Shown here in pieces: positions 10,509-57,246 of a stretch of DNA of 64,000 nt. The position numbers and the translations under genes were made by a program. Each line of letters opens with the position of its first letter. The first letter of the stretch is position 1. The stretch spans positions 79,068-143,067 of the forward strand of contig CAYLRU010000005.1 of NCBI GenBank assembly GCA_964386565.1, written 5' to 3'. This stretch comes from an uncultured Desulfobacteraceae bacterium (GTDB lineage: Bacteria > Desulfobacterota > Desulfobacteria > Desulfobacterales > UBA5616). The notes beneath the pieces are model-generated. The model saw nothing but the letters and a program-made list of their open reading frames with translations. It was not told where the DNA came from and made no database searches.

Positions 10509-10538
10509 CTATTTTTATTCAATATTATATTTCACATT

Positions 10539-12472: not shown

Positions 12473-12595
12473 TATTCTTCCAAACAAAAAGGGCCTTTCG
12501 AATAACGGATATGGTTATAAACAGCCTTCGCCCCATTATGGCGGGGTTAAAAAAACATGAATCGATAACGGGTATGTGTTTTTCAAATATCTATC

Positions 12596-14842: not shown

Positions 14843-14894
14843 AAAAACTATATTTTCGTTTATACATCCAATATGAAAGCGAGGATTCACCCAT

Positions 14895-16241: not shown

Positions 16242-16259
16242 TGCGCTGATCCGAACCAC

Positions 16260-16817: not shown

Positions 16818-16823
16818 AGCGAT

Positions 16824-16862
16824 CCGGGTGAATTCTTTAAAACCCGAATTCACCCGGTTTTT
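16824..16862 (+). terminator. rho-independent terminator after rsmD
   Basis: Perfect 12-bp stem CCGGGTGAATTC / GAATTCACCCGG (16824-16835 / 16846-16857), 10-nt loop, then TTTTT. Starts 7 nt after the rsmD stop. Confidence 0.7.
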
Positions 16863-16995
16863 AAGTGTTAAGATTAAAAAAATGATAAAATTTCAGATGA
16901 TTAAAACTTAAACCGAAAACTCGAAACCATCTCGTAAAAAGTTGTTTTACGACTTTTTACGAGGCCGCCATCTTAAGAAAGGACAATGTTTTTAC

Positions 16996-25697: not shown

Positions 25698-27569
25698 GTG
25701 TTTTTAATGATGAAAATTTTATACCATACTGTTGGACTATTATTTGTTTTCATTATCCTGGCCTGTTCAGCATCTGGCGCATTTTTATATAAAAACTACG
25801 TTATTCAGCATGATCAGGGATGGGACATCCTCTGTGATCCTTATATTGTCCAGAAAAATGACTGGGTTATTAAACTTTTTCAACGGCGGGGCCAGATATC
25901 GGAACAGGATTTTCCCGAATTTTTAAGGATTTTTCAGCGCTTGAATCCGCATATCCATGATGTTAACAAAATCCTGCCCGGCCAGAACATTCTGATCCCC
26001 TTAAAAAAATTGGGGAAAGACACCCTGCCCGGTCAATCTTCCGGGATTGTCACCATCCCTTTTGTCACCATCTCCAAGTTACCGGACATTATTAAAGGAA
26101 ACTCAACACCCCATACCGTAAAACCGGGGGAGTATGTCTCCGGAATCATTTCGTCCGAATTCGGCAGATATGGTTCAAAATCCTATAATGAGGGCATACA
26201 GCTTTTCAAGCTGATCAATCCCGGCATTGTCGATTTAAACCGCATTTATCCCGGACAGGTCCTCCATATTCCCAATGCCGCCCTTAAAAGAAAGGCCTGG
26301 TATGCATCCCTTTTCACTGAGTCCGGTAAAATCAACAAGGACCTTGATATCAGCGGCATTATCGCATCCACGGAAAAACTGATGCAAGCCCCGGCTGAAA
26401 CAAACCCTCCTGATTCATCAAAGCCCACCTCTGTCTTAACAGGTCTGCGAACGCCTTTGTTTGAAGCGGCAAATGCCCTGCATGCCAAAATATTTACCCG
26501 GGGAACGTATTACTTCCCCAGAAAAAGACAAAAAGATTTAGAGCTCGACCTGACCCGATATCCCGTAATGGAACTTGCGACCGGTCAAAAATTTCTTTTC
26601 AGCGAAAATGATGATTTCCCCGAAGCGGACAGAGCCATACTGCGATCCCATTGGCCGGGATTAAAAATCATCCCCATATCGTTTCAGTCTTCTTTTGAAG
26701 AAATTTTAGACGCCATATTCAGGTCTGACAAGCGTTTTAACGTGAAAAACAGGCTGACCCTTGAACACCAGGGAATACACATCGATATCAACGCCAAATG
26801 GATTGTTCGATCAAATCTCTTGTCAGTACCTGTTGATAAAAATCCGAAAACGTCCTGTATTTTTATTGTGGGACTGAACGACGGCATTATGCCCGATCCG
26901 ATAAAGCAGTACCTGGCGGATCTTGACATTCTGGTCAAGGAGATCGGAAAAGACGGGAATCTGATTGAAAATTCGGGGAAAAGCATATGGAACGAAAAAC
27001 CAGGCAAAAGCATGATATTACCCGGATTTTACGAAAATCAAAGAAATTTTATACACCAGTTGGTGTCAATGATGAAATATCAATACGCCGAAAATATCGA
27101 TATTTCATTTCCCTATGCCGGTATCCAGGTCCACGCCCTTTCAAATCTTATATCCACGCCCAAGGGGGAACAACTGCTTGTGGATTATGGCGATCTATAC
27201 GGAGATGCCGTATCGTCCATTAAAAATTCAGGGCTTCGCATCATTCAGCTCTCCAGCGAAGATCACTGGACGGATATTGTCAGGAAAATCACGACCGGCC
27301 TGAACCTTACCCTTACCGAACGACCATCCTTTAAAGCGGCCAACAGGAGTGATGATTATAATATCTATTTGAATGTACCCGGATTCAGGATTGAAACGCC
27401 TGAGAAAAAACGTTATCTTATCACACGATCCCACCTGCACCCTGAATTAAAAAAATTTTTCACTGCAATCGGAATCGAGGTAATGATGATACCTGACGCC
27501 GCAGGATTTCAGCCGGCATCAACCCCTGTCATGCATGATCTCCTGTATACCGGCGGCAATACGGGATAA
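25698..27569 (+). CDS. secreted or lipoprotein with two LysM-like peptidoglycan-binding modules and a ~400-aa unknown C-terminal region
   Basis: Signal peptide ending ILAC. LysM-like segments YIVQKNDWVIKL...ILPGQNILIP and HTVKPGEYVSGI...IYPGQVLHIP. The start could be the ATG at 25707 or 25710. Confidence 0.6.
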   Translation: MFLMMKILYHTVGLLFVFIILACSASGAFLYKNYVIQHDQGWDILCDPYIVQKNDWVIKLFQRRGQISEQDFPEFLRIFQRLNPHIHDVNKILPGQNILIPLKKLGKDTLPGQSSGIVTIPFVTISKLPDIIKGNSTPHTVKPGEYVSGIISSEFGRYGSKSYNEGIQLFKLINPGIVDLNRIYPGQVLHIPNAALKRKAWYASLFTESGKINKDLDISGIIASTEKLMQAPAETNPPDSSKPTSVLTGLRTPLFEAANALHAKIFTRGTYYFPRKRQKDLELDLTRYPVMELATGQKFLFSENDDFPEADRAILRSHWPGLKIIPISFQSSFEEILDAIFRSDKRFNVKNRLTLEHQGIHIDINAKWIVRSNLLSVPVDKNPKTSCIFIVGLNDGIMPDPIKQYLADLDILVKEIGKDGNLIENSGKSIWNEKPGKSMILPGFYENQRNFIHQLVSMMKYQYAENIDISFPYAGIQVHALSNLISTPKGEQLLVDYGDLYGDAVSSIKNSGLRIIQLSSEDHWTDIVRKITTGLNLTLTERPSFKAANRSDDYNIYLNVPGFRIETPEKKRYLITRSHLHPELKKFFTAIGIEVMMIPDAAGFQPASTPVMHDLLYTGGNTG

Positions 27570-27591
27570 TGAGAATTCAGAGAGGTTTTTT

Positions 27592-28410
27592 ATGAATCAA
27601 CTGACAAAAAATACGTTCCGGATGATAAATCTGAAAATAACGCCTTATTTTTCTATCCGCTGTTTTTTCCGGTTGATCATTATTCTGCCGTTTTTTTTCA
27701 CTGCCTGCAAAACCACGCCTGATCGTGCCAGCAATAATCCGGCCATAAACAAGCGCAACATGGGTGAAGCCAATATGCTGCAGGGAAATTATACCGCGGC
27801 ATTGAAAGAGTTGCTTGATGCGGAAAAACTCAACCCCCGGGACCCTGTTATTCAGAATTACCTGGGAATCACATATAAAAATAAAAACATGCCGGATAAA
27901 GCCATCGAGCATTTTAACAAGGCGTTAAGTTTAAAGCCGAATTACTCGGTTGCCCGGAACAACCTGGGAACCGTCTACCTGGATAAAGAAGAATGGGATA
28001 TTGCCATCGGCTATTTCAAATCGGTTCTGGATGATGTCCTTTATATGACGCCCCATTTCCCTTTGTCCAATATCGGCTGGGCTTATTTTAATAAAGGTGA
28101 TTTTTCAACTGCAAAATCCTATTATCTGAAAGCCCTTGAAATCCAGCCTGATTTTATAATCGCCTTAAACGGGCTCGGGCAAATCCACATGGCCCTTAAA
28201 GACTATGAGCAGGCTGTTTTGATTTATGAAAAAATTGTCAGCAAAGTCCCCTCTATACCCGGCTTTCAATTGAAACTCGCCGAGGCGTACGAGTTTAGCG
28301 GCAACCGGCAAAAAGCTGTTTATCATTATTCGCGCTTTCTCCAATTAGCGCCGCACAATCCCAAAAAGGCTGAAATCCAGGCAAAGATAAAATCCTTACG
28401 CGCTCAATAA
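27592..28410 (+). CDS. pilW: TPR lipoprotein, type IV pilus biogenesis/stability protein PilW (PilF)-like
   Basis: Lipobox FFTAC and six TPR-like repeats with the PilF/PilW pattern (...VLDDVLYMTPHFPLSNIGWAYFNKGDFSTAKSYYLKALEIQPDF). AGAGG SD before the ATG at 27592. Confidence 0.65.
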   Translation: MNQLTKNTFRMINLKITPYFSIRCFFRLIIILPFFFTACKTTPDRASNNPAINKRNMGEANMLQGNYTAALKELLDAEKLNPRDPVIQNYLGITYKNKNMPDKAIEHFNKALSLKPNYSVARNNLGTVYLDKEEWDIAIGYFKSVLDDVLYMTPHFPLSNIGWAYFNKGDFSTAKSYYLKALEIQPDFIIALNGLGQIHMALKDYEQAVLIYEKIVSKVPSIPGFQLKLAEAYEFSGNRQKAVYHYSRFLQLAPHNPKKAEIQAKIKSLRAQ

Positions 28411-28620
28411 ACAATCCTTGTCATGAAGCCACCCGCCCTTTCGGGAAACGGTTCGTGACCATCTCACCCTGGGGGCGGGTTTAAAACCCGTTCCTGCATT
28501 TTTTGCAAAAGAAAAACAGATAAACCCGTACCAAAGGTAAAGGAGTATGATACCCATTGCCTGGGACAGGCCGGCACCAGGAAAATACGACGACCATAAC
28601 CTGTTATTTTTGTGGACTCA

Positions 28621-28662
28621 TAAAAAAGGCGGCTTACCGTTTACCGGGTAAACCGCCTTTGT
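28621..28662. terminator. bidirectional rho-independent terminator between the pilW-side and giant-gene transcripts
   Basis: Stem AAGGCGG (28626-28632) / CCGCCTT (28653-28659) with further inner pairing. Flanked by an A-run on the left and TTT-rich sequence on the right. On the minus strand it is followed by TTTTTT, 30 nt after the giant-gene stop. Confidence 0.6.
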
Positions 28663-28689: not shown

Positions 28690-31600
28690 CTAATAGGTCA
28701 ACTCCTGAATGGAACCGGAACATCCCGGCGCCGTAGTCGTATCGCATGTGGGGGTATAGGTAAAGATAAAGTCTCCCATATTAAGCATCGGCCCGATGAT
28801 AAAAGGATTATTGGTCGCCGGGTTGGTGATATCCCGCCATGTTCCCGGAGCAGTATAGCCGTCGGCATAAGTATAATGAAAAATAACTTCCTCATCATCG
28901 CCGATTTTTTGCACAACGGTGAGATCAGATCCCGCAATGGGGGGATTGCCGTTTTCATCCTGAATATAGACTTTAAAAGTGATAAATTGTCCATTAATTT
29001 CATCAAATATGTCCATATCGCATTCACCGGAAAACAACACGGGCATCCGGGTCATGATGCGGTTGAACATGCCCTCCTTACTTTCAATCCATACGGGCGT
29101 TCCTGTATCCACGCCTGTTCCGGCCTGGTAGAAATTGATGCCTTCACCGCCGATGAAGAGCGTGCCGTTGTCATAGGCCAGGGAATGCTGGGCAAACAAG
29201 GTGGTATCATCCGGCGGTTCAAACTGGGGCAGGCCGGTATTGGCCTCGATCCAGTCTTCGTCTTTTAATTCACCGGTTGTCTCATCTATGCCGATGGAAT
29301 ACACATTGCTCACCGCATGGGGTTCCAGGGCACCTTCAAAATAGGTTACCGCATAAAGGCGGTCATTGTCGTTTGCGACCCCGTCGCTCGCCACCACCAG
29401 GTCTTTGATATGCTGTTCCCTGTCCCGGGTGGTGCTGAAGGTAAAGAAATCCCCTTCCGCGAAATCGAGGTATCCATCGGCGATGTTAAACGTCAACACA
29501 TCGGCAATGACGTAATCGCCCGTTGTGATGTCGTAAAGGTCCACGCCGGTAACGTCCCCTGAAATACTTCCCTTCACGCTGAAACGGCCGCCGTTTTCAA
29601 CTTCTTCTTCACAGGTAACGGTCCAGGTCTCGGAAAGCGCATCCCGTCCCACTTCCACAATGGTCATGATGCCGGTCCCGGTATTGTAAACATCCGGTTC
29701 GGGGCTTGTCGCGTTCAGCCCTTTTCCGAATCCGTCATTTTTCGGTATCCATGTAACGCCATTGTCGGAACTGTACCAGACGCCGGCCGACTCCGTCCCG
29801 ACATAAATCACATTTTGGGTGGGATGACAGGCTATGGCCATAATGTTGTCCCCCCCAAATCCCTCAGTGGGAATCCATTGCAGCCCGCCGTTGGTACTGC
29901 GATACACGCCTTTTCCGGTTGCCGCGTATAATTCGGCGTTTACGCCGGAAGCCCCGGGTTTTTTGACGATATCCCGCACGGTTCTGTTCTCGCCCAACCC
30001 GCTGTCGTTCAAGGTAAACGTAAACTCATCTCCCGGCGCAAAAGGCGTTGATCCTTCTTCGATGAGGAAGTAAAGTTCGTAGCCGTCGGTCACGTACGGG
30101 ATTCCGGTTTCCGCACGATTTTCCTGGACCCCGGATTCGCTGCCTCTAACCTCCCAGTTGGCGGTGGCAATGGTTTCGAATTGCCAGAAATCCCCGGTTC
30201 CGTAAAAATTCGTATCCCAAGATATGGTAAAGGACACATCACCGTTGTCAGAAGTGTAGGCCACGTCAGTTCTGGCGATATTGGCCTGATCGCCCGAAGC
30301 ACTGCCGTTAACCTGCCAGCCGTCGGCAACGGTATGGAACGTGAAGACATCTCCGTTTACGAAAACATCGGTTTCAGAGATAAAAAAGGTCACTTCCCCA
30401 CCCGAGGATGTAAACGACACACCCGGATCAGCCTTATATAAACCATGGTTTTCGGTCTGACTTCCCCATTTGGATATCACTTCAAATTGATTTTCCGCTG
30501 CATTCACGCAGGTCACTGTCCAGTCTTCCGTTTTGGTGCTGGGGGAAAGGGAGGTGACAAACAACTCGCCGTTGGTATTCTCGATACGGCTCTTTCCGTC
30601 ATAGGTGGTTCTGAAAACAAACGTGTCACCGATGGTGAACAGGCCGGTTTCCACGATTCTGAACGTGACTTCACCTGAATCCGTCGTATAGGGCTGGGAT
30701 ATATCATCATAATTCGAATTTCCAAGGGAGATGGATCCTGTTACCGTAAACTTGGGATCCACCCCGACGCCACCATCGTAACAGGTTACGGTCCAGGTTT
30801 CGTTCCGGCCTCCGGTTACCGCGTCCACATAGAGAATGCCGGCTTCTTCACCCACCGTATCCCCATTCGGAATAACTTTGGCACCATACCCGCCGAGGTA
30901 AGTCGCCGTCCACGTCTCGGTGCCGGCGTTCTCATCCACCGCGTCCACGGTCATGGTGCCGCCGGCCTGGCTGCCGGAAACATCGGTTAAAACCGGGGTT
31001 GTTGATGTGATACCGATACGCTCGTAGCTTAATGTCCAGTTTTCGGTCACCGAAGCGGCGGACAGCGTTAAATCCGAAACAGTTCCGTCACCGGTATTGG
31101 CCGGGTTTGTCAAAATAGTTTCATCCGGATCCTGCCAATCCGTTGGCCCGATTGGATCAACCCATCCTCCCCAATGAAAATTTATGACATCATCATCACC
31201 GTTTTCGACAAAAACAACTCCCCTGCCGGCGGTTCCGGCCCACACATAATCGCTTCCGTCATCGCATAAAATGGATAAAACCGCATTATTATCCGAAAAA
31301 ACGCCGTACCACTCTTCGGGGTTTTCATTGCTGTTCCACGTATACCCGCCGTTTACACTGCGGTAGATGTTTCCCCGTCCCAAATAGCCGGTGGCTGCAA
31401 ATATCGTATTCGGGTCATCCGGGTCAATACTGATATCATTGACATACGGATCGATGATATTCTGACCCACATTGTCACCGGTGGACCAGCTGACGTTTGT
31501 CCATGTCCTTCCGCCATCCTCTGATTTATAAACCCCGCCGCCGTCCGTTCCGGCATAAACAAGCTCACTCTGGGCATCAAAATAACTGTCAATGGACGTG

Positions 31601-33891
31601 ACATGGGTGGAACGGCCGCTGTTGTTGGCCTCCGCCGTCACAAAGGCGAATCCGTCCAGGGGAGCGGTATTGGAACCGGGCGTCCGAAGAATATTTACGG
31701 CACTGCCGTCCACGGTACCCACATCCGCGGAATTGCTGAAAATCCCGCCTGTATTGTACGTCTTGAAAGAAACAGCCGTTCCGTCAGGAACCGGATTTCC
31801 GTAGATGTCGCCCACATTGACGGTTATGGCATCTTCCAGCCCTGCGTCTTCAAGGCCGGAAACATTCAGGTACTGGGCGGCGATGCCGAAGGCCTCTCCC
31901 ACGGGTGGTCCGTTGGCGATAATGATATTGTTCAAATCATAATTGATCTTGCTGTCAAAGAGATACGTGATCTTGATACCGATGGGACCGGATTTGGTTC
32001 CGCTCCTCAGGATCACGCTGACCTGTCCATCCTTTGTCGTGGCAAATGTGGGGGTGATCTCTTCTCCCCCGCCCAAACCGGAAGAAATGCTCAGGACAAA
32101 CGGGTACCCGTCGGCCACGGTCGTGCCTTCAATGTCTGAAATATCAAAGGTGATCTGCGAGGTGGACACGCCGCCGGTCCCCCGGATATTGATCACCGCC
32201 GGATCCGGAAAGCCTTCTGCAAGACTGATTTGGACTGGCGGTGGTAAAACCGTTATGGTACCGGAACCGCTTACCGGTGTTCCGCCGCTGTCCCATGTGG
32301 CGATCACCGTTACGGTCCCGCCTTTCTGGGCACCGGTAAACGGCACGACAACCTCGCCGTTCCCATCGGTAAGACCTGTTGCCGTAATGGTCCCCAAGCT
32401 CTGGTCGCTCAACGTGAACGCGACTTGTATGTTCTCACCTGCAGGCTCTCCAAACACGTTGGTCAACGCAGCCGTTACGTTGGCGGTATCCTGGCCCGTG
32501 GCGAGTAAAATATTCGGAACAATGGTCACCGATACGTTTCCCGGCGTGAATTCAATCTGGATCTCCTGATTTATTCCGCCTGCACTGGCCTGAATGGTGA
32601 TCACTTCCGGCGTGTCTCCTGCCGTCAGGGTCGCCGTGGCAATTCCGGTTCCTCCCTGGGTTACGGCCGTCGGAGTAATGCTGCCGCCGCCCGGGGCCTT
32701 GATTGCAAATTCCACCTCTATGCCGTCCGGTACGGTTCCGCCGCCGATCAGCGTCAACTGGGCCTTGACATCCGCCTCACTGGCGCCGTCCGCCGGCAGG
32801 GTGGCCGGATCAACGCTGAGGGTAATGGTGGCAACCTTGGGTCCTTCGATGGTAATCTCATACGTACCCAACAGTTCTTCACCCGTTGAATAGACCTCGA
32901 TGCTATCGGTTGTATTCGTCGCGGCAACCGGTGCCACATATGTGACCTGGGCCTGTCCGTCAGAATCCGTGGTTGCGATGTTGGAAGGTTCGAATGTGCC
33001 GTCCCCGGCAACGAATTTAAGCGTTTCACTGCCGGCGGGATTGTCGTTTTCATCGTACGCCCTGACCGTTATGACGCTCTGGATGGTGCCGAAAGGAATG
33101 CTGGTCGGATTTGCCGTTACCTGGACATGATCAACCGCACCGGCGACAAAATCGATTGAAATGGATTTTTCAAATCTGTTATCCACCGTTATTGTTACCT
33201 CGGTCTGGCCGACATTGGTCGAACTGACCAGATATGCGGATGACACACCATTGACCGTCTCCACTGTTTTCGGGTTCTCCAGAACCCGTACATAATCCTC
33301 GAATGTCCCGTATTGGGTACTGAACTCAACCTCAACACCGTCTGCAACCGGATTGCCGTTCTCATCCCTGACCACCGCCGTAATGAGAACCTTTGATTCT
33401 CCGTCCGCAACAATGGAAGCCGATCCGCTTGTGATGCTTATCCCGCTGTCCACGGGCGGGCCGACAATAGTGATATCGATGGTTTCAATGGCATCGTTAA
33501 CCGTCACGGTAACGGTTTCCGTGGGATCGAAATCCGAGATAACTTCCGCTGCGGTCAGGGTCGCCGTGGCAACACCGCCGGTGATGGTCGTCCTGTACGT
33601 CAACTGGACCCCGTCCTGGGTATCGTCAATATCCATGGTCTGGCTGGTAAACGTAACCTGGGTATTGTTTTGCATGGGATTACCGTCGATATCCGTAACC
33701 GTTGCCGTAATCACGGCCTGTGACTGGCCGTCACCAGCAAGGCGATCCACATCAAGGGTCAGGGTTATATCACCGACTTCAACCGCCGCATCTTCGCCAC
33801 CACCGCCTTTTGAACCGCATCCCGTTATTTGAAATGCAATTAACATCATACAAATAGACACAACAGTCCATATGGCTCGATTGAATTTCAT
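28690..33891 (-). CDS. giant (1733 aa) lipoprotein: at least 7 Ig-like (Big_1/invasin-type) repeats, an Asp-box (BNR) beta-propeller with inserted tandem modules, and a C-terminal Ig-like domain
   Basis: Lipobox LIAFQITGC then a Gly-rich linker. Repeated xVTAxVxDxxGNPVxxGxxVxF units. Asp-boxes SEDGGRTW, SVNGGYTW, STNGGLQW and SSDNGVTW. An uninterrupted 5.2-kb ORF 110 nt downstream of pilQ on the same strand. Confidence 0.85.
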   Translation of the reverse strand: MKFNRAIWTVVSICMMLIAFQITGCGSKGGGGEDAAVEVGDITLTLDVDRLAGDGQSQAVITATVTDIDGNPMQNNTQVTFTSQTMDIDDTQDGVQLTYRTTITGGVATATLTAAEVISDFDPTETVTVTVNDAIETIDITIVGPPVDSGISITSGSASIVADGESKVLITAVVRDENGNPVADGVEVEFSTQYGTFEDYVRVLENPKTVETVNGVSSAYLVSSTNVGQTEVTITVDNRFEKSISIDFVAGAVDHVQVTANPTSIPFGTIQSVITVRAYDENDNPAGSETLKFVAGDGTFEPSNIATTDSDGQAQVTYVAPVAATNTTDSIEVYSTGEELLGTYEITIEGPKVATITLSVDPATLPADGASEADVKAQLTLIGGGTVPDGIEVEFAIKAPGGGSITPTAVTQGGTGIATATLTAGDTPEVITIQASAGGINQEIQIEFTPGNVSVTIVPNILLATGQDTANVTAALTNVFGEPAGENIQVAFTLSDQSLGTITATGLTDGNGEVVVPFTGAQKGGTVTVIATWDSGGTPVSGSGTITVLPPPVQISLAEGFPDPAVINIRGTGGVSTSQITFDISDIEGTTVADGYPFVLSISSGLGGGEEITPTFATTKDGQVSVILRSGTKSGPIGIKITYLFDSKINYDLNNIIIANGPPVGEAFGIAAQYLNVSGLEDAGLEDAITVNVGDIYGNPVPDGTAVSFKTYNTGGIFSNSADVGTVDGSAVNILRTPGSNTAPLDGFAFVTAEANNSGRSTHVTSIDSYFDAQSELVYAGTDGGGVYKSEDGGRTWTNVSWSTGDNVGQNIIDPYVNDISIDPDDPNTIFAATGYLGRGNIYRSVNGGYTWNSNENPEEWYGVFSDNNAVLSILCDDGSDYVWAGTAGRGVVFVENGDDDVINFHWGGWVDPIGPTDWQDPDETILTNPANTGDGTVSDLTLSAASVTENWTLSYERIGITSTTPVLTDVSGSQAGGTMTVDAVDENAGTETWTATYLGGYGAKVIPNGDTVGEEAGILYVDAVTGGRNETWTVTCYDGGVGVDPKFTVTGSISLGNSNYDDISQPYTTDSGEVTFRIVETGLFTIGDTFVFRTTYDGKSRIENTNGELFVTSLSPSTKTEDWTVTCVNAAENQFEVISKWGSQTENHGLYKADPGVSFTSSGGEVTFFISETDVFVNGDVFTFHTVADGWQVNGSASGDQANIARTDVAYTSDNGDVSFTISWDTNFYGTGDFWQFETIATANWEVRGSESGVQENRAETGIPYVTDGYELYFLIEEGSTPFAPGDEFTFTLNDSGLGENRTVRDIVKKPGASGVNAELYAATGKGVYRSTNGGLQWIPTEGFGGDNIMAIACHPTQNVIYVGTESAGVWYSSDNGVTWIPKNDGFGKGLNATSPEPDVYNTGTGIMTIVEVGRDALSETWTVTCEEEVENGGRFSVKGSISGDVTGVDLYDITTGDYVIADVLTFNIADGYLDFAEGDFFTFSTTRDREQHIKDLVVASDGVANDNDRLYAVTYFEGALEPHAVSNVYSIGIDETTGELKDEDWIEANTGLPQFEPPDDTTLFAQHSLAYDNGTLFIGGEGINFYQAGTGVDTGTPVWIESKEGMFNRIMTRMPVLFSGECDMDIFDEINGQFITFKVYIQDENGNPPIAGSDLTVVQKIGDDEEVIFHYTYADGYTAPGTWRDITNPATNNPFIIGPMLNMGDFIFTYTPTCDTTTAPGCSGSIQELTY
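30010..31050 (-). repeat. intragenic tandem array of ~55-70 aa modules (protein-level repeat) inside the giant gene
   Basis: Recurring pattern [E/D]xWTVTC ... FxVxGSxSG ... YxSDxGEVxFxI ... FxxGDxFxFxT, seen about six times here and once more at 29425-29635. Confidence 0.7.
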
Positions 33892-34001
33892 TTATGCACC
33901 CTTCCAATCACTATTGTTTGTTCATATTGAATCTGCTTTTATTTAAATTACGCATGCCGGCACGGTAAATATTATGGTGCATGCCGCGAAAATGGCTGAA
34001 A

Positions 34002-36380
34002 CTACATCGCCCTTTGCTCCAACTGAACGATTCTGGGGGTGATGAAAATCAGCATTTCCTTATTCTCAGTGCTTTTCAGATCGTTTCGGAACAGCCATCC
34101 CAAACCCGGAATCCTGGAAAGTCCCGGGAATTTGGTTTCGCTAAAAGACTGGGTGTTTTTCATGATACCACCGATTACAATGGTATCACCGTCATTGACC
34201 AGAAGTTCGGTCTGTGCTTCGTTGGTGGAGATTTGGGGGATGCCGTCGAAACGTCCGGAGATGTCGTTCTTGGTAATCATGATGCTCATGGATATACGGC
34301 TGTCCGGCGTTACATGAGGGGTCACCTCAAGAAGCAGGTCCACATCCTTGAATTCCACATCCCGGCCTTCATCCGTACCTTCAGACTCGTCAAAATACCC
34401 CACTTCAAAGCCTTGTTTGATCATCGCCTTTTTATTGTCCAGGGTCACGATTTTGGGTGCAGACACGATCTTGACATCACTGGAACTCGCCAGCGCGGTC
34501 AATTGGGCATCCAGAACAAAGGGCGTTCCGGCAATCCGGGTAAAATTGAATCCGATTCCCGAGTTGCTGGCCGATGGAAAATTCATGGCAGTGGTCCATG
34601 CATAAGTTCCCCCGAGTATGTCGAAACCTCTTTGAGGTCCGATACCCGCTCTGGGGTCTGAAGACGTTATCCCTCCTGTCATGCCCCATTGAATACCGAT
34701 ATCTCTGGCCGTCTCCGAGTTCAATTCCACTATTTTCGCCTCGATAATCACCTGGGGCGTCACTTTATCGATATTCTTGACAATCTCCCTGGCCTGGGCG
34801 ATTTTTTCGGCAGTGTCCGTTATGATGATCTGATTGTTCCGTTCATCCACGCTGATGCTGCCGCGTTCCTTGGTGATGATGCTTTCAATATGCGGCAATA
34901 CTTCTTCTTTTGCATTGGAGTAACTGACGGAGATGTATTCGGTAATCAGGGGCGCCAGATCCTTGATTTTTTCCTTTGCCTCTCTCTCCGCTGTAACGCT
35001 CTCCATCAGGGATTCGGATTCCTCCTTAATCGTTTTCAGGGTAGCGATGCGAATGATATCGCCTTCGTAAATCACTCCCAATTGATTCATCTTCAAAACC
35101 AGATCCAGTATCTGGTCCCAGGGAACCGGTTTTTCAAGGGTCATGGTGACCTTTCCCCTGACGTCGTCATCGATAATGAAATTTTTCCTGCTGATTTCCC
35201 TGAGAATACGAAACACGTTCTTGATATCGGTTTCATAAAAATCCAGTGCAATCTTTTCTCCGGTATAAACCTTCTTTTCAAAATACTGATCCGTGGCGCT
35301 GATTGAAACGGTATCTTCCGTTTCAATCATTTCTTCTATTTCAATTTCCGGCTCGGTGACAGCACCGGATATGATTTTTTTCCAGGACGGCAGTTCCGCT
35401 GTTTCAAAAGGCCGGGGCGGAACCGAGGACGCCTCAAAGTGGACCATGATAAGGTTGTCGGACGTTTCGACAAAATACGGGACCGCCTCTCTGAGTTCGA
35501 TTGAAATCAGCGAATTGCCCTTCATGCTATCCGTCTGGACAGGAATTATCCTGTCCACGGCACTCTCAAAACGGGTGGTGATCAACTGCCGTTGACGAAA
35601 ATCCGGTATATTGGTCTGATAAAGATTCAGTTTCAGATGTTTATCCGTCACCTTCAGGATATCGTATTCCACCGGCCTTGATGTGCCGATGATAATGGTT
35701 GACTTTCCCGCTTCCTCGCTGGAAAAATCGATTCTGTTGACCCATGCCGGTTTGGCCGGCATCGTCATAGGCGGTTTTACAGTACCGCTTTCGGCCTGTT
35801 CATCAGCGCCCTGTGACAGGTCCCCCGCTATTCGGACATCGTTTGCCGCCAAAAGCTGCCCGGCACCCGCCTGGGCCGCCTTGTCATCGTCCCGCGCATC
35901 CGCCGTTACACCGGATGCCTTGCCCGGTATTTTTTTGAAAACAATATTAAGGGCATTGCCGTCTTGTGTCACCTGGTAGGGCACATCACGTTTCAACAGT
36001 ATGTTTACTCTTGCAGCGCTCCCGTTTTGACCGGATGCATTTGTTTCAACGGCGCTGATAATTTCATTTTCCGCTACGTCACCGGCAACACCCGCATCAA
36101 TTCCGGTTTCCGGGAAATACAGCACCACGCCCAGGGGGAACGGCTGCTTTACGGACGTATAGGTAAGCTTGTCCGATCCCTTAATGGCAACGGTCGTTGA
36201 CGCTGACGCATCAGATGCCTGAATATCGACAATCCGCCTTGATGGCACCGGAGGAGATTTTTCAACTGCCGTCATCTGGGTTGTGGTTGTTGCACATCCG
36301 GTAAAAAGTGCCATTAAACCCGCCATCATGATAAAGAATGCATCTCTTAAACGTAATGATGTCGTACTATTGTAATTCAT
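34002..36380 (-). CDS. pilQ: type IV pilus secretin
   Basis: N-terminal AMIN-like repeats, secretin N domains, and a C-terminal secretin core (...LVNDGDTIVIGGI...KFPGLSRIPGLGWLF...EMLIFITPRIV). Confidence 0.92.
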   Translation of the reverse strand: MNYNSTTSLRLRDAFFIMMAGLMALFTGCATTTTQMTAVEKSPPVPSRRIVDIQASDASASTTVAIKGSDKLTYTSVKQPFPLGVVLYFPETGIDAGVAGDVAENEIISAVETNASGQNGSAARVNILLKRDVPYQVTQDGNALNIVFKKIPGKASGVTADARDDDKAAQAGAGQLLAANDVRIAGDLSQGADEQAESGTVKPPMTMPAKPAWVNRIDFSSEEAGKSTIIIGTSRPVEYDILKVTDKHLKLNLYQTNIPDFRQRQLITTRFESAVDRIIPVQTDSMKGNSLISIELREAVPYFVETSDNLIMVHFEASSVPPRPFETAELPSWKKIISGAVTEPEIEIEEMIETEDTVSISATDQYFEKKVYTGEKIALDFYETDIKNVFRILREISRKNFIIDDDVRGKVTMTLEKPVPWDQILDLVLKMNQLGVIYEGDIIRIATLKTIKEESESLMESVTAEREAKEKIKDLAPLITEYISVSYSNAKEEVLPHIESIITKERGSISVDERNNQIIITDTAEKIAQAREIVKNIDKVTPQVIIEAKIVELNSETARDIGIQWGMTGGITSSDPRAGIGPQRGFDILGGTYAWTTAMNFPSASNSGIGFNFTRIAGTPFVLDAQLTALASSSDVKIVSAPKIVTLDNKKAMIKQGFEVGYFDESEGTDEGRDVEFKDVDLLLEVTPHVTPDSRISMSIMITKNDISGRFDGIPQISTNEAQTELLVNDGDTIVIGGIMKNTQSFSETKFPGLSRIPGLGWLFRNDLKSTENKEMLIFITPRIVQLEQRAM

Positions 36381-36384
36381 GTCG

Positions 36385-37074
36385 TTATTCTCCAGGAGTC
36401 TTCTGAAGTTTCATTTCCGTCTTTCTTATGGTAAAATTTCCTAAAATATCTTCCACTTCCTCTTCAACCACCACTTTATTTATCATTATGTCGACCACCC
36501 GACCGGAGTTCATTCCAATGTAGGTTCCTTCCTCAATGATATACCCCTTACCCGAAACCTCTTCAACCAGTGCCTTGTTTCCACTGGGAGCCAGCATAAC
36601 GGCAACAAGCTTCAACTGGCTTAAGGAAATCTGCTCCAGGGGCGTTAAAGGAACCCGGCGGGTTTTCTTTTCTTTCTTGGGTTGTATTTCGCCTGATCCG
36701 CCCTGTTCTCTGAATATCGGCGCAAATGGATCCAGCTTTCCGGTTGGATCGTATACATACGTCAGATCATCCGTTCTCTTGGTGATGACAATCGAAGGGA
36801 TGCCGGGTTTGTCTCTTTTGACTTCTTTTTTACCCTGTTGCGTCACATCGGGCCGGCTCACTTCAGCCGACCCCTGCTTCGCTGATTTCGCCGGAATCTC
36901 TTTTTTCTTTTCCGGCTCCGCTTCAGACGCCCCTTTATCGGCCACAACAATCTTTTTACTGATCACCTTTTTACGTTCCTTTACCTCGGGTTGTTTATCG
37001 CAACCCCAGAAAAGGAGCAGAAAACATCCTAAAAAAAGGGCCAGGTACCGCATGGTCACAGAGTAATTATGCAT
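36385..37074 (-). CDS. pilP: type IV pilus assembly lipoprotein PilP
   Basis: Lipobox LFWGC, a low-complexity Lys/Glu linker, and a C-terminal PilP beta-domain (LSQLKLVAVMLAPSGNKALVE...GRVVDI). Position between pilO and pilQ. Likely start at 37053. Confidence 0.8.
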   Translation of the reverse strand: MHNYSVTMRYLALFLGCFLLLFWGCDKQPEVKERKKVISKKIVVADKGASEAEPEKKKEIPAKSAKQGSAEVSRPDVTQQGKKEVKRDKPGIPSIVITKRTDDLTYVYDPTGKLDPFAPIFREQGGSGEIQPKKEKKTRRVPLTPLEQISLSQLKLVAVMLAPSGNKALVEEVSGKGYIIEEGTYIGMNSGRVVDIMINKVVVEEEVEDILGNFTIRKTEMKLQKTPGE

Positions 37075-37083
37075 GACGTTTCG

Positions 37084-37716
37084 CTACTTTTTCTTTTTGT
37101 TGTCTTTTTTTGTTTTCGTTTCGGGTTGTTTCTCAATAAACCTGTAAGTCACCGCCGTACAGGACGCATTGAGCACCGTACCGGTTTTTTGGGGTTTTAA
37201 ACTCAGATTCCTTATATTCACCACCCGTGGAAGGCCGGCCACCTTGCTCAGGAAAAGCCCCAGGTTGTGGTAATTTCCCGATACGATAATCGAGACGGGA
37301 ATTTCCGTATAAAAATCCTTCATGTCCTCTTTCTTCGGTTCAAATAATAAAAATTCCAAACCCGCGTCATGTCCGGACTGTGAGATACTGGTCAACAGAT
37401 CCGGGATCTCCTTCTTTTCCGGAAGCGCTCTCCTGACGATCCTGAAGTCTTCCTCTGCATCCTTCATCATTTTTCGGTATTTCGAAAGTTGGGCAGCTTC
37501 TTTTTTCATATTGGCAAGCTTTTTGTCCAACTTTTTAAGTTCCTTGTCCAGCTTATTGATTTCCTCGTATTTGGGAAGGAAGGAAAAATAAACAAATGCC
37601 CCTATAATAAGGACAACGGTTCCCAGACTGATAAGAAGTCGTTGTGCCTTTGACAGCGTCTCAACTTTTTCAATATAAGGCTCTATCACTTGTAAGGATA
37701 TGTCTAATTTTTTCAT
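37084..37716 (-). CDS. pilO: type IV pilus assembly protein PilO
   Basis: Single TM, coiled coil, and a C-terminal ferredoxin-like domain (IPVSIIVSGNYHNLGLFLSKVAGLPRVVNI). Confidence 0.85.
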   Translation of the reverse strand: MKKLDISLQVIEPYIEKVETLSKAQRLLISLGTVVLIIGAFVYFSFLPKYEEINKLDKELKKLDKKLANMKKEAAQLSKYRKMMKDAEEDFRIVRRALPEKKEIPDLLTSISQSGHDAGLEFLLFEPKKEDMKDFYTEIPVSIIVSGNYHNLGLFLSKVAGLPRVVNIRNLSLKPQKTGTVLNASCTAVTYRFIEKQPETKTKKDNKKKK

Positions 37717-37720
37717 TTTA

Positions 37721-38260
37721 TTATTTTTTGTTACAGGTTATGTGAAAGCTCTTCATATCGATCTGCTGATATTTCACTTGTTTCAGCGTATTGAGATTAA
37801 CGGCATTAAAAAGATCCGAATTTTCCAGCCGGATCATGAAGTCAGCGACGGTCTTGTTGTCAAGGGCGATTCCCGTAATGATCACGTTTGGCCCCTTGAA
37901 TGAAAAATCCGTAAACCACATCCGATTCGGCACAACCAGGCCCGTCATGGCATCAAGAAGCCTCACCGGTTCCGTCCGATTGGCTTCAAGATCCTTGATC
38001 ACCCGTATTTTCTTCTTTAATACCGCTATCTTATCTTTTATGGTCTGAATTTCCTTGTTGATCTTGGCATATTTTTCAATTTCATTTTTTGTGTGACGGA
38101 TCTGTTCATTCAGCGTATCAATTTTTTTTGCCAAGATGCTTTGGACAAAAAACAACGCAAGAACAATCAACACCAGGGAAAGAAAGAAAACGGATATTTG
38201 TCGCCTGATGTTCTCTTTTTTACGCGCTGCACGAAAGGGCAGAAGATTTATTCGTATCAT
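37721..38260 (-). CDS. pilN: type IV pilus assembly protein PilN
   Basis: MIRINLLPFR N-terminus (the PilM-binding motif) and one TM helix. ATGA overlap with the pilM stop. Confidence 0.87.
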   Translation of the reverse strand: MIRINLLPFRAARKKENIRRQISVFFLSLVLIVLALFFVQSILAKKIDTLNEQIRHTKNEIEKYAKINKEIQTIKDKIAVLKKKIRVIKDLEANRTEPVRLLDAMTGLVVPNRMWFTDFSFKGPNVIITGIALDNKTVADFMIRLENSDLFNAVNLNTLKQVKYQQIDMKSFHITCNKK

Positions 38261-39312
38261 TTGTCATCAACTTTTCTGAGTGCAAGGCCCATGCAAATTG
38301 CCGCCTGGGGTGCGATTGCTTTTATGTAAGAGGCTTGAAACTTGTCAATATCGACATCAATACTGGCAAAGGGATTAATCGGCTCCACTTCCGCAAACGT
38401 CTCTTCGGCGAGTAACTGGCGGAACTCCTTAATGTTTGCGCCTCCCCCGCTCAATATGATCTTCTTGATTTGATCATCAGGATACGTTGAATAGAAAAAA
38501 TCAAGGGCCCGCCGGATTTCATTACACCAGTCCGCGACCACGGATGATACAATCCCCTGGAGATGTTCCGGGGTCAGCTTGTCCCCGGGGTTATTGAGTT
38601 TTACCTGTTCGGCCTCTTCAATGGAGCAATTGATCATCGAAGCGATCTCCTGATTAATCTGGCCGCACCCCAGGGATACATCGCGCATGAACACCGAGGT
38701 GTTCTCCTTTAGAATGTTCAGCGATGTCTTGCTGGCGCCGATATCGATGAGGGCGACATTTTCACCGCCCGACCCGTAACTCAGTTCGTAAATGTTCTGG
38801 AGGGCAAAGGCATCGATATCGATAATGCAGGGGTTGAGGTTGGCCAACTGGATCAGGTTGATATAATTGTTAACCATTTCCTTTTTGGCCGCAACAAGAA
38901 TAACATTCATCTGGTTGGGATTTCCTTCCGCCTCACCCAGAATCTGAAAATCGATGTTCACATCGCTGATGTCAAAGGGGATATACTGCTCCGCTTCAAA
39001 ATGAATGGTCTCCTGAAGCTGGTCTTCCGACATGGTCTGAACGTTGATCTTTTTAACAATAACCGAGTACCCGCCGATGGAAACCGCGACATTCTGTTCT
39101 TTGATGTTATATGCCTTAAACAACTGGCGGATTACATTTGCCACCTGTACCGGATCAGTAATATTTCCTTCTTCGATCAGGCCCGGCGAGAGTTCAACCA
39201 TCCCGAATCTGGCCAAGCTCATCCCTTTTTTCGTCTCGAGGATTTCGCCTGCCTTTATCGATTTTGAGCCGATATCAAGTCCGACGAGAGTGTTTTTTTT
39301 ACCAAATAACAT
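38257..39312 (-). CDS. pilM: type IV pilus assembly ATPase-like protein PilM
   Basis: Actin/FtsA-like fold (VGLDIGSKSIK ... LIDIGASKT ... ILSGGGANI). Confidence 0.92.
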   Translation of the reverse strand: MLFGKKNTLVGLDIGSKSIKAGEILETKKGMSLARFGMVELSPGLIEEGNITDPVQVANVIRQLFKAYNIKEQNVAVSIGGYSVIVKKINVQTMSEDQLQETIHFEAEQYIPFDISDVNIDFQILGEAEGNPNQMNVILVAAKKEMVNNYINLIQLANLNPCIIDIDAFALQNIYELSYGSGGENVALIDIGASKTSLNILKENTSVFMRDVSLGCGQINQEIASMINCSIEEAEQVKLNNPGDKLTPEHLQGIVSSVVADWCNEIRRALDFFYSTYPDDQIKKIILSGGGANIKEFRQLLAEETFAEVEPINPFASIDVDIDKFQASYIKAIAPQAAICMGLALRKVDDK

Positions 39313-39875: not shown

Positions 39876-41291
39876 ATGAAACAAGTCGCGATAGAGGAAA
39901 AAACAAAACCTTTCAGGCTGGTAAAGTATTTTACACTGTCCAGTCTTGTCGTTATTTTCTTCGGCATACTCGTGTTGTCCGTCTTGAACACGCATTTGGC
40001 AAGAAAACTGCAGCAGGAAAAAAGCGAGGCATATGCCCGCGTTCTGATTGAAAATTTAAATCACCAGATATTTCTGCAGTTCGTTATCCCCGTGGCCATT
40101 CAATTCGGCAAAATCCAACTCCGGAATCCCGAACAGTTCGAACGAATGGATAAGGTTGTCAGAAGCACATTTCATAGTTTCGACGTGGAGATGGTGAACA
40201 TCTACGACCTGGAAAACACGGTTTCGTACAGTTTTAATAAAGACATCATCGGAAAGGAAAATATCGGCGGAACCGGTTTTCAAAACGCTCTTGACGGCCG
40301 GATGACATCAAAAATCGTACAAAGGGGAAATTTTCTGGAAATATTGTTCGGATTCCCCAAGGAAAGCCGGATGCTGACCTTTGCACCGTTAAGGGCTGAA
40401 AAACCGCTCTCAACACTTTCAGGCCCCATACTGGGCGTCGTGGAGATCGTTCAGGATCTGTCCGAGGATTACCAATCTATTTTCAGATTCCAGATCCTTG
40501 TGTTTTCCACCATTTCATTTGTAATGGTTTCTATTTTCATTGTGATGCTGCTGATCGTCAGAAGAGGGGAAAGCATCATACGGCAAAGGGCCCTGGAGAG
40601 ACTAAAGCTGGAAGAAAAATTAAACCGCGCCAAGCATCTTTCATCCCTGGGCGAAATGACAGCCGGCATTTCCCACGAGATCAGAAACCCCCTCGGCATC
40701 ATTAAAAGTTCCGCGGAACTATTGAAAAAAAAGATGAGCGGTTTTGACGCCGCCAATAAAATACCGGATATCATCATCGAGGAATCCAGCAGGCTGAATA
40801 ATATTATTACGGATTTTTTAAATTACGCCAGGCCCAAATCGCCTTCCCATGCCGACTGCCGGATAGCCGATATTCTTGAAAAAAACATCACATATCTCAA
40901 GCCGCAAATCGAAGAAAAAGGTTATGTTATCAAAACATATATCACAGATGCACTGCCCCCGCTGTCTGCCGACGCAGACATGCTGCACCAGGCGTTTTTA
41001 AATATTCTTCTAAATGCAATGCAGGCCATGCCCGACGGCGGTGAAATCCAGATTGAAGTCAATTCAACAGACCATTCCGTTATCATCGTTTTTGAAGACG
41101 AGGGGCCCGGAATCGCTCCGGAAAACATCGATAAAATCTGGAATCCTTTCTTTACCACAAAAGAAACAGGGACCGGGCTGGGTCTGGGCATTGTAAAAAA
41201 CATCATCGAATCACACGGCGGCACCATCGATATCCGTAACAACACCCCTTTGCGGGGTGTCAGCGTCAGGATTGAATTACCGGTGAATTAA
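39876..41291 (+). CDS. sensor histidine kinase (2 TM, periplasmic sensor domain, HisKA, HATPase), tentatively PilS/AtoS-like
   Basis: H-box ISHEIRNPLGI and N/G boxes (LLNAMQAM, DEGPGI, GTGLGLGI). Divergent from the pil operon. Confidence 0.85.
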   Translation: MKQVAIEEKTKPFRLVKYFTLSSLVVIFFGILVLSVLNTHLARKLQQEKSEAYARVLIENLNHQIFLQFVIPVAIQFGKIQLRNPEQFERMDKVVRSTFHSFDVEMVNIYDLENTVSYSFNKDIIGKENIGGTGFQNALDGRMTSKIVQRGNFLEILFGFPKESRMLTFAPLRAEKPLSTLSGPILGVVEIVQDLSEDYQSIFRFQILVFSTISFVMVSIFIVMLLIVRRGESIIRQRALERLKLEEKLNRAKHLSSLGEMTAGISHEIRNPLGIIKSSAELLKKKMSGFDAANKIPDIIIEESSRLNNIITDFLNYARPKSPSHADCRIADILEKNITYLKPQIEEKGYVIKTYITDALPPLSADADMLHQAFLNILLNAMQAMPDGGEIQIEVNSTDHSVIIVFEDEGPGIAPENIDKIWNPFFTTKETGTGLGLGIVKNIIESHGGTIDIRNNTPLRGVSVRIELPVN

Positions 41292-41302
41292 GGAGTATTC
41301 CC

Positions 41303-42694
41303 ATGGAAACCATCTTAATCGTGGATGATGAAAAAAATTATCCGCCGATCTTAAGCGCCGTTTTAGAAGATGAGGGCTATGAAACGCTGACCGCCAATTC
41401 CGGCCGGGAAGCCCTTCTCATATTAAATGACTCCGACATCGACCTTGTTCTTACCGACATGAAAATGCCCGGCATGGACGGCATCGAGCTGCTTGAAAAA
41501 ATCAAATCCTGTGATCCTGACTTGCCGGTGATCATGATGACGGCGCACGGTACCGTGGACAAGGCGGTCGAGGCAATGCAGAAAGGGGCTTATACCTATA
41601 TTCTTAAACCGTTTGACAATGACCGGCTGGTTCTTTTCGTTGAAAAGGCAATTGCCATGTTCCGTGTGATAAAGGAAAACAGAAGGCTTCGGGATGCTGT
41701 TGAATCCCAGTACAAGTTCGGCAATATCATCGGCAAGACAAAAGTGATGAAAAGCATCTTTGAAACCATTCAAAAAGTTGCTCCCACGCCGGCAACGGTA
41801 TTAATTGAAGGTGAAAGCGGAACGGGAAAAGAGCTTGTTGCCAAATCCATTCATTTTAACAGCCCCCGCCATGACAAGCCGTTTATCCCGGTTAACTGCT
41901 CGGCTTTTGTCGAGACCCTTCTGGAAAGCGAACTTTTCGGCCACGAAAAAGGAGCCTTTACCGGGGCTGTTTCCATGAAAAAGGGACGTTTCGAACTGGC
42001 TGACGGCGGCACCCTCTTTTTGGATGAAATCGGTGAATTGTCCCCGAACCTGCAGGTAAAGCTCCTCCGGGTACTCCAGGAAAAAAGCGTTGAGCGGGTC
42101 GGCGGCATAAAGCCCATATCCGTTAATATCCGCCTGATTTCGGCGACCAACAAAACGCTGGAGGATGAAATCAGCCACGGCAGGTTCAGGGAGGACCTGT
42201 ATTATCGATTAAATGTTGTACGAATCGTCATTCCCCCTTTAAGGGATCGCAAGGAGGATATTCGTCTGCTGGTAAATCATTTTATAAAAAAATATGCAGA
42301 AGAGCGAAAATCCGATATTCCCATAAAAGGAGTGGACCATGAAGTCGAGCGTCTCTTTTACGATTATCCCTGGCCGGGAAACATCCGGGAACTTGAAAAC
42401 ATCATCGAGCGGGCCATGATATTATGTCCCGGAGAGTTAATTACCCCTGCTGATTTGCCCAACGAGTTTAAAAGCAGCATCGACAACACGCTCCGGCTGG
42501 ACGGCATTCCGGTGAATGCAAATCTTTATGAGACAATGGCCAAGGTGGAACAGGAGATGATCATCAGGGCGCTGAAAGTCACCAACAACGTTCAATCCCA
42601 TGCCGCCCGGTTGCTGGGTATCGGAAAAAGCGGCCTCAATCAAAAGATTAAAAAATACAACCTGGATATAACCGCCGAGACGGACAAGCGATAA
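41303..42694 (+). CDS. sigma-54-dependent response regulator (REC-AAA+-Fis HTH), tentatively PilR/AtoC-like
   Basis: Receiver D (LVLTDMKMPGMDG), Walker A GESGTGKE, intact GAFTGA (HEKGAFTGA), C-terminal Fis-type HTH. Confidence 0.9.
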   Translation: METILIVDDEKNYPPILSAVLEDEGYETLTANSGREALLILNDSDIDLVLTDMKMPGMDGIELLEKIKSCDPDLPVIMMTAHGTVDKAVEAMQKGAYTYILKPFDNDRLVLFVEKAIAMFRVIKENRRLRDAVESQYKFGNIIGKTKVMKSIFETIQKVAPTPATVLIEGESGTGKELVAKSIHFNSPRHDKPFIPVNCSAFVETLLESELFGHEKGAFTGAVSMKKGRFELADGGTLFLDEIGELSPNLQVKLLRVLQEKSVERVGGIKPISVNIRLISATNKTLEDEISHGRFREDLYYRLNVVRIVIPPLRDRKEDIRLLVNHFIKKYAEERKSDIPIKGVDHEVERLFYDYPWPGNIRELENIIERAMILCPGELITPADLPNEFKSSIDNTLRLDGIPVNANLYETMAKVEQEMIIRALKVTNNVQSHAARLLGIGKSGLNQKIKKYNLDITAETDKR

Positions 42695-57245: not shown

Positions 57246-57246
57246 C

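Follow-up and report, generated by a model that had tools for sequence, protein, structure and literature searches.

A clade-restricted family of stalked propeller lipoproteins encoded beside the type IVa pilus secretin gene of Desulfobacterales

What is the 1733-amino-acid (aa) protein encoded directly behind the secretin gene pilQ in an uncultured Desulfobacteraceae bacterium, and how is it tied to the pilus beside whose genes it lies? Its open reading frame (ORF) is found on the reverse strand of a 64,000-nucleotide (nt) stretch of DNA (GenBank assembly GCA_964386565.1, contig CAYLRU010000005.1, positions 79,068 to 143,067), here called the window. Type IV pili play a central part when sulfate-reducing Desulfobacterales attach, aggregate and enter the syntrophic contacts proposed for them; to our knowledge, accessory components of these pili are essentially unstudied there. 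An earlier note on the window had described the ORF as a lipoprotein with immunoglobulin (Ig)-like repeats and an Asp-box propeller and had suggested a new kind of pilus- or secretin-associated surface adhesin. Our analysis places the protein in a family of pilus-locus-linked stalked lipoproteins that is uncharacterised and restricted to one clade; its head architecture is new, and its parts are familiar. The gene is an accessory occupant of the slot 3' of pilQ and not a core pilus component. By analogy with characterised surface lipoproteins, we propose an outer-membrane-tethered stalk-and-head adhesin that would be an optional cargo of the Desulfobacterales type IVa pilus (T4aP) locus, displayed on the surface and coupled to the pilus operon, a proposal that we regard as evenly poised between right and wrong.

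Stalk, head and family of the lipoprotein

The ORF starts with ATG, preceded by a Shine-Dalgarno-like GGAAGGG, and it is not a chance reading frame, because one database cluster matches its protein at 100% identity and more than 30 homologues reach E < 1e-180. Antisense ORFs inside the gene (31603-32139, 31943-32569 and 33353-33832, all on the plus strand) were taken as spurious. The protein begins MKFNRAIWTVVSICMMLIAFQITGC-GSKGGGGED and matches the lipobox pattern of signal peptidase II substrates, [LVI][ASTVI][GAS]C, as MKFNRAIWTVVSICMMLIAFQITG followed by C. Both the lipobox ITGC and the glycine linker reported earlier are present, with equivalents in nearly all full-length homologues, and the first Ig domain begins directly behind them, at aa ~43. 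Big_1 (PF02369, 1.9e-30) and Invasin_D3 (PF09134, 2e-35), each with six stretches above threshold, are the sole Pfam families found in the protein. A self-built hidden Markov model (HMM) resolved seven Ig units in aa 43-760, in agreement with the previous count of at least seven invasin- or intimin-like repeats, and an eighth unit at the C terminus (aa ~1628-1733). Judged by typical Ig-domain length, the seven-domain stalk is estimated at roughly 25-30 nm. No tandem or direct DNA repeats of note occur within the ORF, and its protein-level repeats are old and diverged.

The terminal Ig-like domain carries the Cys-containing tail that had been pointed out before, TPTCDTTTAPGCSG. Most homologues end in C..APGCSG, and since the two cysteines are replaced together in several members, the pair probably forms a disulfide, which, like the conserved lipobox and tether, also argues for an extracytoplasmic location. 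Pfam and NCBIfam scans returned no match to an autotransporter barrel, LPXTG or PEP-CTERM model, as the earlier note had held.

The head lies between the stalk and this terminal domain. All four Asp-boxes named in the earlier note are present (Table 1), and its description of a propeller split by inserted repeat modules is borne out by an AlphaFold2 model of aa 760-1733, which was built on a 53-sequence family alignment and has a mean predicted local distance difference test (pLDDT) score of 82. The modelled chain runs through three blades, an insert, two blades, a second insert, two blades, an irregular linker and a beta-sandwich. With both inserts and the terminal domain spliced out, the propeller was modelled with seven blades at a pLDDT of 87 and a predicted template modelling score of 0.89. 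Foldseek searches of the PDB placed it nearest to one propeller of the glycoside hydrolase family 74 (GH74) xyloglucanases (6mgl, 2ebs, 1sqj and 2cn3; template modelling (TM) score 0.62), followed by DAIP (5fzp/6fhp), a Streptomyces propeller that binds a protease, and by WD40 propellers of generic type; with the whole 974-aa model the TM score was just ~0.1-0.15, for which the inserts are responsible. PDB searches at the sequence level, run with the head and with the family profile, gave nothing beyond Asp-box-level matches. Because there is a single propeller and no glycosidase model reached its cutoff, we infer that the modelled head is a binding module rather than an enzyme.

Blade 7 is separated from the last Ig domain by the segment SKEGMFNRIMTRMPVLFSGEC (aa 1604-1624, about nt 29020-29082), which is among the most conserved of the family (consensus SK.GLTNLIMARMP.LFSG.C). 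It has no regular secondary structure in the model, a short stretch of it falls to pLDDT < 50, and it may serve to bind a partner or act as a plug.

The two inserts are copies or half-copies of one beta module of ~80 residues, with the pattern ..E.WTVTC....F.V.GS.SG....Y..D.GEV.F.I.....F..GD.F.F.T. Insert 1 is limited to a subset of homologues; insert 2 aligned in 5/5 sequences of one family alignment (A1) and is also present in the family consensus of two others (A2/A3). Searched against a library of 1.8 billion proteins, a profile of five copies of the module matched 643 clusters at 50% identity, 140 of them at E<=1e-10. The module-bearing proteins (P0234-P0375) include unrelated proteins of ~600 aa, very small ones and giants of 3000-5000 aa. 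Ten of them were scanned; Pfam recognized just Asp-box, FG-GAP or Big_5, elsewhere in the protein, and their names were uninformative. The module profile had no match in Pfam or the PDB, and the module is an unannotated domain.

Two database searches recovered ~90 clusters (at 90% identity), in which the propeller and the C-terminal domain are shared at 30-60% identity. They come essentially all from Desulfobacterales and allied groups, with named hosts in Desulfonema limicola, Desulfatibacillum, Desulfococcaceae, Desulfamplus, Desulfatirhabdium, Desulfatiglandales and Candidatus Magnetomoraceae. Carriers that can be cultivated include Desulfonema limicola (CP061799, with the gene at 10001-16948 of locus L001) and Desulfatibacillum alkenivorans DSM 16219. 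Outside the family, matches were to generic BNR propellers and covered the Asp-box blades only. Nearly all complete members begin with a lipobox and a Gly/Ser tether. Homologues range from ~800 to more than 3000 aa, with up to ~3700 codons of open frame, and differ in their number of Ig domains, the head keeping 40-60% identity; since one of them (P0132) has no Big_1/Invasin_D3 match, stalk length ranges from none upward. Two homologues of ~2900 aa (P0005 and P0006; locus L003, 10001-18604) each hold two complete propeller units in one polypeptide, with further Ig repeats between them. Database names are all generic ('hypothetical', 'invasin domain 3-containing', 'adhesin/invasin'), and the protein did not turn out to belong to a family that is already characterised. 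Literature searches turned up no account of the gene, their only yield being the analogue InvL (PMC9245377); PMC6060248 has no description of the gene.

InvL of Acinetobacter baumannii is a barrel-less lipoprotein of 492 aa with a stalk of three invasin-like Ig domains and a lectin-like cap as its head, whose surface localisation needs GspD, the secretin of the T2SS (type II secretion system); PulA, SslE and MtrC/OmcA are cited as further T2SS-dependent surface lipoproteins (PMC9245377). Judged by design, InvL is the closest characterised analogue of the ORF protein, which likewise combines a lipoprotein signal in place of a barrel, an invasin-type Ig stalk and a distinct distal head in the logic of an adhesin. 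The likeness is one of design, a sequence relationship not being established. The ORF protein differs from InvL in having seven Ig domains, a seven-bladed Asp-box propeller into which modules are inserted, and an Ig domain at its end; furthermore, InvL uses a T2SS, whereas the secretin encoded beside the ORF is that of a T4aP, and its role for the ORF protein is conjectural. PulA, SslE and MtrC/OmcA, surface lipoproteins that depend on a secretin-based machine related to type IV pili, are enzymes and cytochromes of unrelated fold and function. As for the suggested new kind of surface adhesin, the family is indeed uncharacterised, whereas its design principle is less novel, given the InvL precedent (PMC9245377).

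Further systems share single features with the ORF protein. Like intimin and invasin (type Ve), it uses Big_1/Invasin_D3 Ig repeats as a rigid stalk below a C-terminal binding domain; unlike them, it has a lipid anchor and, by Pfam, neither an N-terminal barrel nor a LysM/periplasmic domain, and its head is a seven-bladed propeller with an Ig-like domain instead of a C-type-lectin-like fold. An intimin/invasin autotransporter was accordingly rejected, with barrel families absent among Pfam matches at E<=1 and no lectin head. PilY1 is also a large, pilus-locus-encoded protein with a seven-bladed propeller and a putative adhesion role; the ORF product, unlike it, is a lipoprotein and not a pilus-tip protein encoded with minor pilins. 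The architectural difference from PilY1 that had been claimed before holds, as there is no PF05567 match in Pfam and no PilY1 among the top 50 Foldseek matches. An identity with PilY1 was ruled out, a genuine PilY1 homologue coexisting with minor pilins downstream of the homologue at locus L054. A Sortilin/Vps10 protein (ten blades plus 10CC) was rejected on the seven blades and the lack of a PF15902 match; homologues listed with their genes had weak or faint PF15902 matches at most.

Linkage to pilQ, transcription and accessory status

The gene upstream is a clear pilQ (362 bits against TIGR02515, cutoff 284), and the same-strand spacer between it and the ORF is exactly 110 nt, as stated earlier. 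Folding of this spacer gave a z of 0.43, with no terminator-like hairpin. A search for sigma-54 promoters (TGGCAC-N5-TTGCW, <=2 mismatches) returned 24 matches against 27 expected, none in the spacer and none upstream of pilM. A sigma-70 and terminator scan did no better than chance, and its loop limit made it miss the real terminator of the ORF, which was recovered by folding. The nearest sigma-70-like match to the ORF (9/12, at 34189-34162) lies within the 3' end of pilQ. The earlier note had assigned the ORF a terminator shared with its neighbour, which is wrong: the convergent tetratricopeptide repeat (TPR) gene has a separate hairpin at 28470-28496 (+), ~130 nt from that of the ORF. Read-through from pilMNOPQ is most likely and the simplest reading of these signals, because the spacer holds neither terminator nor sigma-54 motif and a strong terminator follows the ORF. 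A recent foreign origin by composition was rejected: GC content at third codon positions is 0.59, inside the range of the neighbours, and the GC excess of the ORF sits at codon position 2. An Rfam scan of the 64-kb window found no RNA family at the gathering threshold.

Linkage to pilQ is recurrent. Fifty-five homologue-bearing loci were fetched and the Pil proteins of the window mapped on them; in 31 of the 37 loci with a visible upstream region, the direct upstream neighbour on the same strand is pilQ, or pilQ followed by a TPR gene, usually with the whole of pilMNOPQ. A scatter of homologues without pil linkage, which by the earlier note would have refuted its reading, is not the pattern seen. 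At eight loci a Tgl/PilW-like TPR gene is the direct upstream neighbour, with pilQ visible before it in seven; at the remaining one (L044) the contig ends at the TPR gene. The linkage spans PilQ lineages that are just 28-58% identical to the PilQ of the window and have rearranged surroundings, the other neighbours varying from VanZ/Dus genes (Desulfonema) to a same-strand LysM gene (L003) and to minor pilins and PilY1 (L054). The window and locus L002 both carry convergent TPR, LysM, thrC-like and serS genes. At L054 (8001-19672), a 1223-aa homologue has pilMNOPQ on one side and, on the other, a set of minor pilins (GspH-like, three N_methyl and PilX_N), which is followed by a PilY1 homologue of more than 2000 aa with F5/8 type C and DUF1349 domains.

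Two loci record a recent exchange. L002 carries the gene and L140 does not, and their outer flanks are 99-100% identical; the difference is a 7.9-kb segment with the big gene (L002 9705-17566 versus L140 12268-12519). Toward this indel, nucleotide identity falls to 90-96% in mid pilQ and to 62-78% in the last ~700 nt of pilQ; on the other side, the TPR gene is at 67-71% and the LysM gene at 91-97%, and beyond them 99-100% is reached again. The pattern bears the signature of allelic replacement by homologous recombination, with a tract that covers the 3' end of pilQ, the big gene and the TPR gene. The alignment records a recent gain or loss within a species, and it shows that the donor lineage had the gene beside the same neighbours. 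The halo of divergence around the indel resembles that of surface-antigen loci.

Several observations weigh against a pilus-coupled surface adhesin. Among 30 loci fetched with the PilQ of the window as the query, 17 have the convergent TPR gene within ~0.5 kb of pilQ and no Ig or propeller match (for example, L136, L137 and L139-L146), and L154 is the sole carrier. Six homologues or paralogues are unlinked to pil genes (L012, L014, L030, L031, L053 and L055); those of clear extent have ~900-1450 residues, and P0132 and P0123 have no Ig-domain match. At L150, the slot after pilQ holds an unrelated FAD-oxidase-like ORF, and because unrelated genes can occupy the site, the position may be partly a permissive insertion spot. 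A neighbour-joining tree of PilQ C termini did not separate carriers from non-carriers, which gives no sign of secretin co-adaptation. Given the 9/12 sigma-70-like match inside pilQ, the ORF may also have an internal promoter, and short family members may face the periplasm.

The gene-less loci include ones from Desulfobacter species, a Desulfobacterium metagenome-assembled genome (MAG), a MAG of Desulfosarcinaceae and, as the closest genome encountered (PilQ 77%, SerS 80%), MAG BLK5-2.bin.101; most of the gene-less loci keep the LysM, thrC-like and serS genes behind the TPR gene. In the two of them whose intergenic region was inspected (L137 and L140), a terminator-like GC-rich hairpin with a T run, read from the sequence and unscored, comes right after pilQ. 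With the gene missing in the majority of the closest PilQ relatives, the pilus has no need of it; a core part of the T4aP outer-membrane subcomplex, such as PilQ, the pilotin PilF/Tgl or TsaP, would be present wherever the pilMNOPQ of the clade is, and this protein is not. Of the suggested association with pilus or secretin, the recurrent linkage to pilQ stands, and a fixed part of the pilus machine falls. A Desulfosarcinaceae MAG locus (L138, 5953-7950, +) has a 665-aa lipoprotein right after pilQ with three Big_1 domains, a different C-terminal part and no propeller; the slot after pilQ hosts more than one kind of Ig-stalk lipoprotein.

Neighbouring genes in the window

Coordinates of the ORF, its parts and the surrounding genes are collected in Table 1. 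The serS, thrC-like, LysM and TPR genes form a unit that converges on pilQ whether the big gene is present or not (L002, L136-L146, L151, L155 and L159). The TPR lipoprotein is a candidate secretin pilotin and the LysM protein a candidate peptidoglycan-anchoring, TsaP-like partner; neither reaches a curated family cutoff, and the LysM neighbour gave generic LysM matches only when searched against the PDB. By position, the kinase and regulator divergent from pilM are PilS/PilR-like, and the same pair lies beside pilM at L001 and L002. No pilin-like genes were found among the window ORFs scanned. Three further ORFs, 2048-3514 (-), 57199-58998 (+) and 63183-63929 (+), of 488, 599 and 248 aa, matched no NCBIfam family at E<=1e-10.

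Table 1. Features of the pilQ-linked lipoprotein gene and of its neighbourhood, in positions of the window.
Feature	Position	Strand	Details
Whole ORF	28690..33891	-	1733-aa lipoprotein: Ig stalk, propeller head, C-terminal Ig domain
Signal peptide and lipobox ITGC	33817..33891	-	lipobox 33817-33828, aa 22-25, Cys25
Gly-rich flexible tether GSKGGGGEDA	33787..33816	-	aa 26-35
Seven Big_1/Invasin_D3 Ig-like domains (stalk)	31612..33765	-	aa 43-760; Pfam and HMM
Propeller blades 1-3	31147..31611	-	aa 761-915; Asp-boxes SEDGGRTW (aa 790-797) and SVNGGYTW (aa 845-852)
Insert 1	30004..31146	-	aa 916-1296; loop between blades 3 and 4; tandem full and half module copies
Propeller blades 4-5	29686..30003	-	aa 1297-1402; Asp-boxes STNGGLQW (aa 1332-1339) and SSDNGVTW (aa 1374-1381)
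Insert 2	29428..29685	-	aa 1403-1488; between blades 5 and 6; one module copy
Blades 6-7 and conserved non-regular linker	29020..29427	-	aa 1489-1624; EPHAV.NVY, GGEGIN, M.RMP.LFSG
C-terminal Big_1-like Ig domain	28693..29019	-	aa 1625-1733; NGNPP motif; Cys pair TPTC...APGCSG
Intrinsic terminator of the ORF	28619..28660 (about)	-	14-bp stem and U6; -28.7 kcal/mol, z -4.2 (folding)
pilQ-to-ORF spacer	33892..34001	-	110 nt; terminator-like hairpin, sigma-70-like and sigma-54 matches all absent
pilMNOPQ	34002..39312	-	T4aP alignment complex and secretin, upstream of the ORF
pilQ	34002..36380	-	
pilP	36385..37074	-	
pilO	37084..37716	-	
pilN	37721..38260	-	
pilM	38257..39312	-	
Convergent TPR lipoprotein gene, Tgl/PilW-like	27535..28410	+	lipobox FTAC; candidate secretin pilotin
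LysM-domain protein gene	25698..27569	+	623 aa; conserved partner of the TPR gene beside pilQ in Desulfobacterales
Histidine kinase and sigma-54 response regulator genes	39876..42694	+	kinase 39876-41291, regulator 41303-42694; divergent from pilM

Competing readings and their meaning

The proposed adhesin would work as follows. The lipid anchor and glycine tether would hold the stalk of seven Big_1 Ig domains, and the stalk would present the single seven-bladed Asp-box head, decorated by beta modules in two of its loops, with the disulfide-pinned Ig-like domain closing the protein. The gene, placed between pilQ and the convergent pilotin-like TPR gene, would most likely be transcribed by read-through from pilMNOPQ; strains exchange it through homologous recombination, along with the 3' end of pilQ and the TPR gene. 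The protein would be displayed on the cell surface, where its head may bind a polysaccharide, matrix or partner-cell ligand and act together with pilus-mediated attachment or aggregation. A location at the surface rather than in the periplasm is suggested because, by a size estimate, the stalks of members of more than 3000 aa are too long for the periplasm, and the family fits the pattern of stalked adhesins because stalk length varies while the head is conserved.

The protein might instead be a generic surface adhesin without a functional tie to the pilus, its site being a permissive, well-expressed and recombination-prone slot for large surface-protein genes. We consider this rather unlikely. 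It would account for the absence of the gene from most of the closest PilQ relatives, for its presence or absence at the level of strains (L002 versus L140), for the pil-unlinked paralogues, for the other occupants of the slot (the Big_1-only lipoprotein of L138 and the oxidase-like ORF of L150) and for PilQ C termini that do not sort by gene presence. A slot of this kind fits poorly with linkage at 31 of 37 loci over such divergent PilQ lineages and rearranged surroundings, with the eight loci at which the gene comes after pilQ-TPR, where the neighbourhood was rebuilt and the linkage kept, and with L054, where the gene sits between pilQ and the minor-pilin and PilY1 genes.

How the adhesin would reach the surface is a separate matter. 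Its passage might depend on the secretin, as for InvL and PulA, InvL being the best mechanistic precedent for a gene that lies behind one for a secretin; a PilQ-dependent route here strikes us as improbable. Equally doubtful in our estimate is the broader reading that the protein is a substrate of the T4aP machine, passing through PilQ as T2SS-like tethered cargo, or that it docks to PilQ from outside and makes contact with the pilus as it emerges. Under such a reading, the recombination block in which pilQ's 3' end, the big gene and the pilotin-like TPR gene move together would reflect a co-adapted outer-membrane module, against which the unsorted PilQ C termini have to be set.

By default, Lol sorting takes lipoproteins to the inner leaflet of the outer membrane. 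The protein could accordingly be a periplasmic, secretin-associated structural part on that leaflet, one that would join the TPR pilotin and the LysM protein in scaffolding or protecting PilQ. Default sorting, the pilotin-like and LysM neighbours and the strong conservation of head and linker motifs, as for a fixed protein partner, all speak for such a part. A stalk that ranges from none (P0132) to proteins of more than 3000 aa, far beyond the periplasm by the size estimate, does not suit it, and closest relatives that mostly lack the gene and have the same pilMNOPQ-TPR-LysM set show that the protein is not a core structural part; we hold this reading to be very improbable. Most improbable to us is that the protein remodels exopolysaccharide as a glycoside hydrolase of GH74-like or sialidase-like type on the cell surface: this is suggested by the GH74 fold matches, the Asp-box motifs in four blades, a weak NCBIfam match, with 55 bits where the cutoff is 175, to 'F510_1955 family glycosylhydrolase' and a profile match to PDB 3b7f ('glycosyl hydrolase, BNR repeat', 1e-7), whereas GH74 catalysis needs a cleft between two tandem propellers and the ORF has a single one with two domain insertions and Ig flanks (GH74 chains are ~2x the model length, so that the TM score of 0.62 by query length becomes ~0.35 by target length), identity is 14-19% and confined to the Asp-box blades, all family scores lie under their cutoffs, and seven blades and the lack of a BNR_2 (PF13088) match set the head apart from the six-bladed sialidases.

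The stalk-and-head adhesin is the reading that we carry forward. The family consists of very large lipoproteins whose gene is kept beside the secretin gene across lineages yet swapped between near-identical strains, a combination typical of surface structures under diversifying selection. The analysis also exposes an unannotated beta-module domain that is able to sit in propeller loops. If display of the protein did depend on PilQ, the principle of the secretin-exported surface lipoprotein, known from PulA, InvL and MtrC, would extend from the T2SS to the T4aP.

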